From: Massalongia carnosa
Lineage: Eukaryota
Length of the DNA: 64,000 bases
Direction of reading: 5' to 3'
NCBI GenBank assembly: GCA_965645245.1
Contig: OZ287073.1
Location: 1 to 64,000, forward strand
Positions 23,266 through 24,880 of this stretch are shown here, piece after piece (the first letter of the stretch is position 1; the number at the start of each line of letters is the position of its first letter). The notes under the pieces are model-generated. The model did no database searches. It worked only from the letters and a program-made list of their open reading frames with translations, and was not told the DNA's origin. The position numbers were made by a program, and so were the translations under genes.

Positions 23266-24880
23266 TCAGATATCTTCGATCCTGCTCTCAGTGATTAGCC
23301 ATGAATTAATCTTAAGGTGAGTACGTACCTGTTTAGCATAAAGTATTCGTTTTTTGCGAGCTTCTTCTTCGGCCGCCTCTAGAAAGCGACGTTTGTTATT
23401 TCTATGTCCCTGTAGTGTTCCAGCAAACGTCTGATTCATATTTAACCTTTGAAATTGTTGTAACTGTGCCTCGTCCATGTCTAACAATCCAATAGCCCAA
23501 CGAGCATAGTTCTTCTGCTCTTCCTTAGTCTCTTCCGATGAGTCTGTTAAAACTGACGACGACTGAGATCGAGATTAGGAATTAATTTTACTCTCGAGGG
23601 TAATATTTATGTCGCGATGAGATGTAAAACTCTTGTCGCTCTCGGTCGCAATATCTTCATCGTTTTGAGCCGAGAATCTGCGATACCTAAAAACAAAAGA
23701 TGAGATGGTTCTATGTCACGTGAGGCCCCTGAGTCAAAGTAAATTAAGAATCACCCTCTGAAAATTCTTTCCTCATTCACTTCTTCTCACTCGGCCTCAT
23801 CCATCTCACTGACTCGTCGTCGACCCCACGTTGTCTCGGTGCCCCTACCTCGCTGTCAGTGCTTGCTGCTTTTCCCCACCCTCGGCCACCCGAGATTCAT
23901 AGCTAGTTAGAAGCCACCTTAAGTGAGCGATGGGCGTACAGGTCAACCAGGGCATCGATCCGGAGCGCCGCCGGGCACCTCCATCTAGACCATTGCCGTC
24001 GGGCACTGCCGTCGGGCATCATCTATCGGATCGTTGAGCGTCAGCAGACGCCTCGGGCCTAGAAGATGAGGTTCTCACCTCAGCACCGACCCCGAGTCAC
24101 GTGCCTAGGCCTGCCCGGGCTGACCTGTGTCGTTCCCATGCCCAATCAAATTCAAGCATTCAAATCAATTCATCCAATTAAAAGCCCCCCCCAGCGCAAG
24201 CGAAGGTAACGGCACCCATAAGGGTCATAGAACGATCACTGAATCCATTCCAGTCACTTATGTCAGTATGATCACTCATATTGTCGCTCTCGCCGTCATG
24301 ATTGCTGTCGCTATTATTGTCATTAAAGTCAATGTCATTCTCTTTATCAACTTCGTCTTCGTTGTGACTAGATTGAGAGACAGAAGCAGTTTTGGATCTA
24401 CTACTTGCAGTACTAGCAGAAACGTCACTCGCGGAAGGTCCCGAGTGATCACATGTACGCCTGTTATGCTTGAAACTCTTGCAGATTTAGCATATCATCC
24501 TCTGCTTTGATAAATCAAATCGTTTTCTTCTTTCACGTCTGATTTTTGGGCGACCAGCCTGGACTAAAAATTCTGTTGGTTTCACAGCGGCCGCTGCGAG
24601 AACATTGAGATCAATAGGATGTAAAAATGACTGGTATGTTGCCTTGTACTCAGCGATTGTAAAGATAGGACTGATAAAATCCTCTGGTTCTCTTTCTTGC
24701 TTCATACACAACGCAACGGCATGATCACATGGCATTTCGTAATCCTGAAAATCATGACAAGTACATGTCTTGGCTTCCAGATCCACGATGTGATGACTTC
24801 CAGTACCAGTAGTGACGATACCGCAGAAAGGACGAGAATTTTGAACAATATTGTTGAATAGGTCTATGACTATGGCTATA
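23266..24880 (-). pseudogene. Mutator-like (MULE) transposase C-terminal remnant with SWIM zinc finger
   Basis: VDLEAKTCTCHDFQDYEMPCDHAVA (SWIM), GRPKIRR, CKSFKHNRRTC knuckle, acidic tail. Interrupted by the mini YR element. Confidence 0.7.
23701..24228 (+). mobile_element. Non-autonomous miniature derivative of YR element 4
   Basis: 23701-23876 is the reverse complement of ~48897-49069; 23931-24228 is the reverse complement of ~44741-45037. AGA flanks both ends (23698-23700 and 24229-24231). Confidence 0.95.

Follow-up and report, generated by a model that had tools for sequence, protein, structure and literature searches.

A 531-bp gene-less element that shares both ends of a tyrosine-recombinase retrotransposon and is probably a non-autonomous derivative mobilised in trans

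A 531-bp element located within a 64-kb stretch of DNA (the whole stretch that was analysed, referred to here as the window) was identified as a non-autonomous miniature that parasitises a tyrosine-recombinase (YR) retrotransposon. Both exact termini of an autonomous-type partner are present in this short element and the genes are absent. The identification is supported by the exact ends, by a precise, AGA-flanked insertion for which an empty site was found, and by the occurrence of the internal deletion scar in a second context in public sequencing reads. As to how the element arose and spread, we regard it as probable, but by no means assured, that this non-coding element derives by internal deletion from a repeat-less Ngaro-like YR retrotransposon and was mobilised in trans and copied, most likely by reverse transcription.

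The borders of the short element were placed by BLASTN and pairwise alignments at 23698-24231, with AGA on both sides and an inner part at 23701-24228 (Table 1). When 23698-24231 was compared by BLASTN with the 64-kb window, both partners were located within one 4.3-kb element on the minus strand, referred to as element 4: query positions 1-179 matched 49072..48894 (99.4%) and query positions 234-534 matched 45037..44738 (98.0%), and no BLASTN match in the window was obtained for query positions 180-233, which correspond to the filler. No source for the filler was found in the form of a match longer than 14 nt anywhere in the 64-kb window. A preliminary description of this DNA had proposed that ~176 bp and ~298 bp of element 4 are joined here by ~54 bp of unrelated sequence, and that the short and full copies have the same ends and the same AGA flanks. 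BLASTN and the alignments confirmed the former, and direct comparison of the two copies bore out the latter, as both copies start with TGAGATGG, end with GGGTCAT, and are bordered by AGA on each side.

The 5' segment comprises the parent's 5' untranslated leader as far as the first copy of a ~75-bp tandem repeat, which it includes in full. Gag codons are absent from the segment; the first gag-frame ATG of the parent is near element position 250, and the two copies of the leader repeat are at 48831-48895 and 48906-48969 (a 65-bp match). The 3' segment contains the last 19 recombinase codons, which are the only parent coding sequence kept in the short element, and the parent's complete 3' untranslated region; the recombinase ORF stops at 44980-44982. 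Approximately 3.86 kb of parent sequence were lost. The sole ATG-initiated ORFs overlapping the scar region (23780-24020) encode 36-39 aa, and three small ORFs in or across this region were not found by exact look-up in the protein collection. The short copy carries seven differences from the full copy in the window, four of which were checked as private against sequencing run X3 (described below), indicating that the insertion in the window is not fresh.

Table 1. Coordinates in the window of the short element, its parent copy, and associated features
Feature	Position	Strand	Basis or remark
AGA, 5' side	23698..23700	+	Target or crossover trinucleotide; X1 empty-site joint, 3 letters fitting either side
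5' segment, 176 bp	23701..23876	+	Equals 49069..48894, 1 mismatch
Filler, 54 bp	23877..23930	+	Marks the deletion scar; small hairpin inside
3' segment, 298 bp	23931..24228	+	Equals 45037..44741, 98% identity, 5 substitutions and 1 one-base indel
Stem-closed multibranch RNA domain, predicted	23931..24144	+	Within the 3' segment; long closing helix
AGA, 3' side	24229..24231	+	Alignments and X1 empty-site joint
SWIM zinc-finger ORF of the host repeat	24490..25014	-	Pfam PF04434, E 8.4e-05
Parent-type full-length copy, element 4	44741..49069	-	AGA at 49070-49072 and 44738-44740
Full-copy empty site, paralogous LINE copy	11868..11870	+	Single TCT, which is AGA in element orientation

The window is repeat-rich and fungus-like, and contains a LINE (endonuclease, RT, RNase H), Gypsy elements, a Tc1-like transposase, and a SWIM-finger repeat. 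Four retroelements with RT/RNase H (elements 1 to 4) were found in it; a tyrosine-recombinase ORF is present in elements 1, 2 and 4, and none was identified in element 3. The recombinases of elements 1 and 2 are only ~35% identical to that of element 4, and the ends of element 4 had no nucleotide match to the rest of the window beyond the short copy. The borders of element 1 were placed at ~16516 and ~20987 by means of a 45-59%-identical protein paralogue at 3161-4118, which is too diverged for the flanking trinucleotide to be read.

The parent, element 4, encodes in order gag with a CCHC knuckle, an in-frame TAG, RT (in two frames), RNase H, and a 388-aa tyrosine recombinase. Its RT and RNase H parts showed 41% and 35% identity, respectively, to element 2 by BLASTP, and the single ORF of element 2 matches RVT_1 and RT_RNaseH in Pfam; element 4 itself gives a weak Pfam match to RT_RNaseH, of 23.0 bits (E 9.3e-05), where the cut-off is 24.8. 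The frameshift in the RT of element 4 breaks the frame between element-2 residues 191 and 199 and, lying inside RT, shows that this full-length copy is a defective one. The 388-aa recombinase had 324 homologues, some of which are labelled 'integrase' by JGI. The closest cluster of these consists of 54 sequences with 97% identity, spread over Mb-size contigs, which indicates that the family is multi-copy. In the recombinase alignment (A3), R175, H291, R294, W317 and Y325 were invariant, which we take to be the catalytic R-H-R-(H/W)-Y set of tyrosine recombinases, and the element 2 homologue of the recombinase had a sub-threshold match to Phage_integrase in Pfam. No rve or protease match was found for element 4 in Pfam. 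Furthermore, the RNase H ORF (46065-47156) overlaps the YR ORF (44983-46146), so that there is no room for a methyltransferase or other domain between them. The set of features found in element 4, namely gag-like, RT, RNase H and tyrosine-recombinase parts with no protease found, is that of YR (DIRS-order) retrotransposons, and on the strength of its sequence the parent would be classified as a repeat-less Ngaro-like tyrosine-recombinase retrotransposon.

The terminal-repeat architectures of related elements were searched for in the parent and in the short element. Self-BLAST of the parent (word size 7) detected only the 65-bp leader tandem repeat and chance matches of up to 13 bp. Neither the split direct repeats of Ngaro elements (A1...B1-A2-B2), sought by self-BLAST and by junction-spanning searches against shuffles, nor the inverted terminal repeats and internal complementary region of the DIRS1 type, sought by self-match and junction searches, were found in the parent. 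Ngaro elements are defined by gag, RT/RH and YR, by the lack of a methyltransferase, and by split direct repeats at the borders (PMC3783388, PMC7192593). The parent resembles them in its order of gag, RT/RNase H and YR and in having no room for a methyltransferase, and differs from them in that the border-defining A1...B1-A2-B2 repeats were not found. Direct terminal repeats (LTRs) were not found in the short element by BLASTN and self-match, nor were terminal inverted repeats, its two ends (given above) not being inverted repeats of each other. No tRNA genes were found in the 64-kb window.

Two candidates were rejected in the course of these searches. An apparent internal copy of the end junction near 24058-24110, within the 3' segment, was matched by 282 of 300 and by 43 of 60 shuffles, the count of this look-alike pattern being 11 against 6.7 expected. 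A putative inverted terminal repeat, in which the 3' tail weakly matches the reverse-complemented leader repeat, was equalled in 57 of 2000 shuffles with the comparison limited to the leader and in 292 of 500 with the whole element. When the two ends are abutted, a candidate 6-bp inverted repeat (CATAGA / TCTATG) can be read by eye across the junction.

Part of the window is present in 14 public sequencing runs from 12 studies, and four of these runs (X1, X3, X5 and X6) were examined. Both insertions proved to be precise. An empty site for the full copy is provided by a paralogue in the window, in which 10674-11870 corresponds to 43545-44740 and 11868-12069 corresponds to 49070-49271, with a 3-bp overlap (TCT). 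An empty site for the short copy was found in run X1 among contigs over 23000-25000, as a joint from 23697 to 24229 that skips 531 bases; the joint was observed in one contig, with 43 letters on the shorter side and three letters that fit either side. This joint is the uninterrupted form of the host repeat, which is covered by many X1 contigs. At both insertions AGA occurs once before and twice after the event. Such doubling looks like a 3-bp target duplication, but would equally be left by a recombinase that crosses over within an AGA core common to both partners. In run X5, one 5' flank had AAA, not AGA, before the start of the element. With respect to the target of the short copy, which had been called a MULE remnant, the proposal that it is different from the target of the full copy held; the one match in support of its identity as a MULE is that to the SWIM zinc finger in Pfam.

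A second context of the scar was found in run X3. One of the four X3 records (record 9, 290 nt) consists of 24202..24228 followed directly by 23698..23960, that is, the final 27 nt of an element and one AGA lead into the 5' segment, which is followed by the filler and by the first 30 nt of the 3' segment. Its left neighbour is the 3' end of an element and not the flank present in the window, and the arrangement is a head-to-tail junction with a single AGA. Of the other three records, record 11 runs from parent-type recombinase sequence into the 3' segment, record 10 consists of the shared 3' segment, and record 12 passes from the 3' end into a flank unlike that of the window. The 3' segment in X3 has parent-type letters at 23990, 23994 and 24185, where the short copy in the window has private letters, and these differences indicate that the short copies in the window and in X3 are distinct DNA.

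Record 9 is a single contig with a mean word depth of 2.4. Its join between 5' segment and filler is well bridged (179 and 84 letters), whereas its outer joins have 27 letters (30 with the AGA) and 30 letters, one fewer than the 31 letters that the tool requires for bridging. The depths of the X3 contigs were 2.4 (scar), 2.8 (parent-type sequence), 4.9 (shared 3' segment) and 2.0 (flank). These values fit one short copy plus one parent-type 3' part, but contig depth is a poor measure and no conclusion is drawn from it. The arrangement would be either a tandem array of parent and short copy or a free circle, which look alike in an assembly graph. In X5 and X6, only parent-type or broken contigs were present at the scar. 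The flanks in the SWIM repeat had no coverage in X3, X5 or X6; this absence is given no weight here, in contrast to the left neighbour positively seen in record 9.

These records bear directly on the possibility that a full element in the SWIM-bearing repeat lost 3.86 kb in situ, with acquisition of the filler, and that the short form never moved. The preliminary description had noted that a single copy would fit such a deletion. Only one copy of the scar is present within the 64-kb window, an exact metagenome scan with the first 23 nt of the 3' segment gave 0 matches, and deletion with filler is a common outcome of repair. However, the scar is not confined to a single context, as the same succession of 5' segment, filler and 3' segment has another left neighbour in X3 (in one low-depth contig); it is very unlikely that an identical 3.86-kb deletion arose independently and acquired the same 54-bp filler, and the short copies differ at several positions of the 3' segment. 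As the same deletion is present in two contexts or more, a mobilised non-autonomous derivative is favoured over in-situ deletion, which we consider improbable. Of still lower probability, in our estimation, is a spread of the scar without transposition, by ectopic recombination, gene conversion or segmental duplication. Repeats are dense in this region, and unequal crossing-over could give a head-to-tail array; segmental duplication, however, would bring the flanks along, whereas the insertion in the window ends exactly at the termini and has a clean empty site, and gene conversion gives no new precise insertion in an unrelated repeat.

RNA folding was utilized to examine the 3' segment, which the preliminary description had reported to begin at a 'conserved TGGGCGT-stem'. 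A stem-closed domain together with a looser motif was indeed common to elements 1, 2 and 4, whereas the literal TGGGCGT was not: among the YR elements it is present only in the short copy and element 4 and not in the other three, and its 6 matches in the window compare with 5.7 expected by chance. The fold of 23931-24231 had a minimum free energy of -110.7 kcal/mol (z -2.93), with 0 of 100 shuffles as stable, and the fold of the whole short element had a z-score of -4.14. Analogous stem-closed domains were predicted directly after the recombinase gene in elements 1 and 2, with inner-helix sequences that differ; the z-scores of the domains were -4.3, -3.9 and -5.4 for elements 1, 2 and 4, respectively, and the motifs common to the three are GGGC..TTCC..TTGGG at the start and GCCCAA at the end. 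The outermost helix of the full element includes sequence that the short copy lost, as it begins 14 nt upstream of TGGGCGT and the breakpoint; in the predicted fold, a second TGGGC nevertheless lets the short copy close the domain.

Distant relatives in metagenomes were also examined for this domain. From 80 fetched loci, 76 were tabulated, and 15 were dropped for short downstream sequence, leaving 61 with at least 200 nt downstream. A domain closed by TTGGG...CCCAA was found at 2 of these 61 loci, compared with 2 of 61 in the reverse-complement control and 0 of 61 in upstream coding sequence, and the literal GCCCAA was present at 2 of the 76 tabulated loci. An Rfam search over 23400-24500 gave no match at E <= 1. 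It is plausible, judging from the predicted folds, that the 3' domain is a local cis element.

The following course of events is proposed. A single deletion event would have removed ~3.86 kb and picked up 54 nt of filler, whose presence at the scar would fit template switching or end joining. The deletion product would have been moved by proteins supplied in trans by intact members of the family. For integration, the recombinase would cross the AGA-bearing head-to-tail junction, circular or tandem, with a target AGA, a crossover that would reproduce AGA on both sides; if the target AGA were at the end of a resident copy, a head-to-tail array would be formed, exactly the arrangement seen in X3. 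The copying step would most likely be reverse transcription of the short element's own transcript. This RNA route is slightly favoured over a route through DNA only because the leader and the entire 3' structured region were kept, beyond the terminal recombinase sites, and because the filler fits template switching. An RNA route would also be in line with the presence of gag, RT and RNase H in the family, with its multiple copies, and with the precedents of SIRE, TOC1 and the trans-acting proteins of DIRS-1. Against it, the sequence of the parent appears to offer no device for rebuilding the ends from a sub-genomic RNA.

Alternatively, the recombinase might excise the short element as a circle through a crossover between its two AGA-bearing ends, or resolve a tandem, and re-insert it at AGA in the manner of Cryptons, with no RNA involved. 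The preliminary description had read the retained RNA stem as a sign of movement through RNA, which is not supported as worded, since excision and re-integration by the recombinase alone predicts the same ends, AGA flanks and head-to-tail junction. Such a reaction would start from and yield precisely the forms observed, namely integrated copies flanked by AGA and a head-to-tail junction with a single AGA. The lack of a terminal redundancy or an internal copy of the junction, from which ends could be rebuilt from RNA, is also in its favour, as may be the candidate short inverted repeat read across the abutted ends. However, recombinase sites usually measure tens of bp, whereas the short element retained 176 + 298 bp, among them the leader and the complete structured 3' domain, maybe by chance as there is a single deletion type; with genes for gag, RT and RNase H and dozens of copies, the family fits copy-and-paste movement; and the empty sites are paralogues and not excision footprints. 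Mobilisation through DNA only was judged to be unlikely, and a derivative mobilised in trans and copied by reverse transcription remains the preferred explanation.

Short parasites that have both ends in common with a YR retroelement are already known from SIRE/VIPER and TOC1, and the short element described here is a fungal member of this known class of non-autonomous YR retroelements. In the case of VIPER, an element of Trypanosoma cruzi, the layout is nearly the same: SIRE takes 185 bp from the VIPER 5' end and 220 bp from the VIPER 3' end, with ~30 bp of unique sequence between them (PMC6681497). The corresponding parts here are 176, 54 and 298 bp. The gene order of VIPER is gag-YR-RT/RH, whereas it is gag-RT/RH-YR here, and the host of VIPER is a kinetoplastid, in contrast to the fungus-like genome of the window. 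In addition, the same paper describes split direct repeats in VIPER, with SIRE equivalent to the A2-B2 repeats of that element, and regards the mobility of SIRE itself as a matter of debate (PMC6681497); no split direct repeats were found in the parent here. TOC1 of Chlamydomonas reinhardtii is described as a non-autonomous DIRS element whose copy number varies between strains (PMC9940879). This DIRS/PAT-type element is similar to the short element in being a non-coding relative of a YR retrotransposon. TOC1 has split repeats and a length of several kb, whereas the element here is 531 bp long and without repeats.

DIRS-1 of Dictyostelium is likewise a YR retroelement, and a head-to-tail junction is central to the model of its replication. 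DIRS-1 supplies its proteins in trans and frequently inserts into copies of itself (PMC7192593). It differs in having inverted terminal repeats, an essential 88-bp internal complementary region and a methyltransferase, none of which was found here. The preliminary description had labelled the short element TRIM/MITE-like, which we retain as an analogy only, the precedents being SIRE/VIPER and TOC1. TRIMs, LARDs and MITEs share with it the concept of short, gene-less derivatives that use the enzymes of a parent. However, TRIMs have two LTRs flanking a PBS and a PPT, whereas no direct terminal repeats were found here, and MITEs have TIRs and a DDE-type target duplication, whereas neither is present here and the integration enzyme is a tyrosine recombinase. 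No fungal non-autonomous YR retroelement was found in a literature search that covered titles and the openings of abstracts, subscription papers aside.

Among retroelements, YR retrotransposons are, to our knowledge, those whose replication is least well understood, the primer, the packaging signal and the recombinase site all being unknown. The claim that the short element defines minimal cis signals was overstated, since from a single type of deletion one obtains an upper bound on the sequence that is sufficient, and not a minimum, and this only if the element really moved. A more far-reaching interpretation is that this is a fungal Ngaro-like family without terminal repeats whose complete ends are regenerated by transcription or recombination across head-to-tail junctions, tandem or circular, with one shared AGA, that the 531-bp element is a live parasite of this cycle, that the 176-nt leader and the 298-nt tail form a natural mini-replicon that suffices for the full cycle of YR retrotransposition, and that the 3' domain, which occurs in three divergent families of the genome, serves as a recognition signal for RT or gag. 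We put this forward tentatively and regard it, taken as a whole, as somewhat unlikely.

In conclusion, the parent family is unusual in that its borders are clean and verified by empty sites and in that it has none of the terminal-repeat architecture on which current models rely. It is also unusual in its setting, as YR retroelements were found to be rare outside Basidiomycota and early-diverging fungi in a 2013 survey of 177 fungal genomes (PMC3783388). The evidence for a head-to-tail junction at the level of reads, from one low-depth X3 contig, is noteworthy as well. An experimental system for YR retrotransposons exists in DIRS-1 of Dictyostelium (PMC7192593), the only one named in the literature consulted. 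A naturally mobilised 531-bp derivative, if it was indeed mobilised, would set an upper bound on the cis sequences that are needed, and the 531-bp element could readily serve as the scaffold of a fungal assay with a marked mini-element.

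The LINE into which element 4, the 4.3-kb tyrosine-recombinase (YR) retrotransposon, is inserted (43545-44740 and 49070-49271) has an insertion-free paralogue, 94-98% identical, in the same window at 10674-12069, and this empty site fixes the borders of element 4 to single-base precision. Element 1, another RT/RNase H retroelement of the window (~16516-20987), likewise splits a sequence for which an unsplit paralogue was found at 3161-4118 (45-59% protein identity), which places its borders approximately, near 16516 and 20987; because this paralogue is too diverged, the trinucleotide flanking element 1 could not be read. 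Directly adjoining the YR element is a Gypsy element, in which 234-bp direct repeats, 100% identical to each other (49565-49798 and 55719-55952), lie on either side of gag-pol ORFs (49907-55656); the repeats have the appearance of LTRs from a very recent insertion.

Stem-closed, RNA-like domains were identified in elements 1 and 2, both of which carry a recombinase ORF. The motifs at the start and end of these domains are common to element 4, and the helix sequences differ.

Stem-closed RNA-like domains of elements 1 and 2
Element	Position	Strand	Location	z
Element 1	20723-20856	+	immediately 3' of recombinase gene	-4.3
Element 2	29038-28901	-	immediately 3' of recombinase gene	-3.9

Element 3, a further RT/RNase H retroelement, contains tandem repetition (38437-38606 and 38511-39494, minus strand) and, at the place where a recombinase would be expected, a repetitive ORF. 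Recombinase motifs were absent from this ORF, and element 3 seems to be a YR element that has undergone rearrangement.

Both element 4 and element 2 have gag and pol in one frame with a single stop codon between them, TAG followed by GGG in element 4 (47810-47812, minus strand) and TGA followed by CTA in element 2 (31684-31686, minus strand), an arrangement which suggests that gag-pol is expressed via stop-codon readthrough in these two elements. The full-length copy of element 4 also contains a frameshift within the reverse transcriptase (47157-47164, minus strand), between the positions that correspond to element 2 residues 191 and 199, and this copy cannot supply the enzymes.

The full copy has two repeats of a leader unit of ~75 bp (48831-48969 in the parent, minus strand), and the short copy, the 531-bp gene-less derivative of element 4, has one. 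Contigs of the public sequencing run X1 placed on the short-copy region contained 'go-back' joints at this unit (23875 to 23814 and 23875 to 23803), which indicates that the leader repeat number varies among copies.

In one contig of a second run, X5, the sequence past the 3' end and AGA (behind 24231) loosely resembles a diverged element 5' start; within the 30 letters visible, TGGTTCT is common to both at a similar offset, and this flank may represent a further head-to-tail arrangement. CACGTG and GAGTCA-type motifs are found side by side both close to the 5' start of the short copy (23718-23738) and in its 3' segment (24106-24116), and these motifs could be promoter elements that are united across a head-to-tail junction (3' end, AGA, 5' start).
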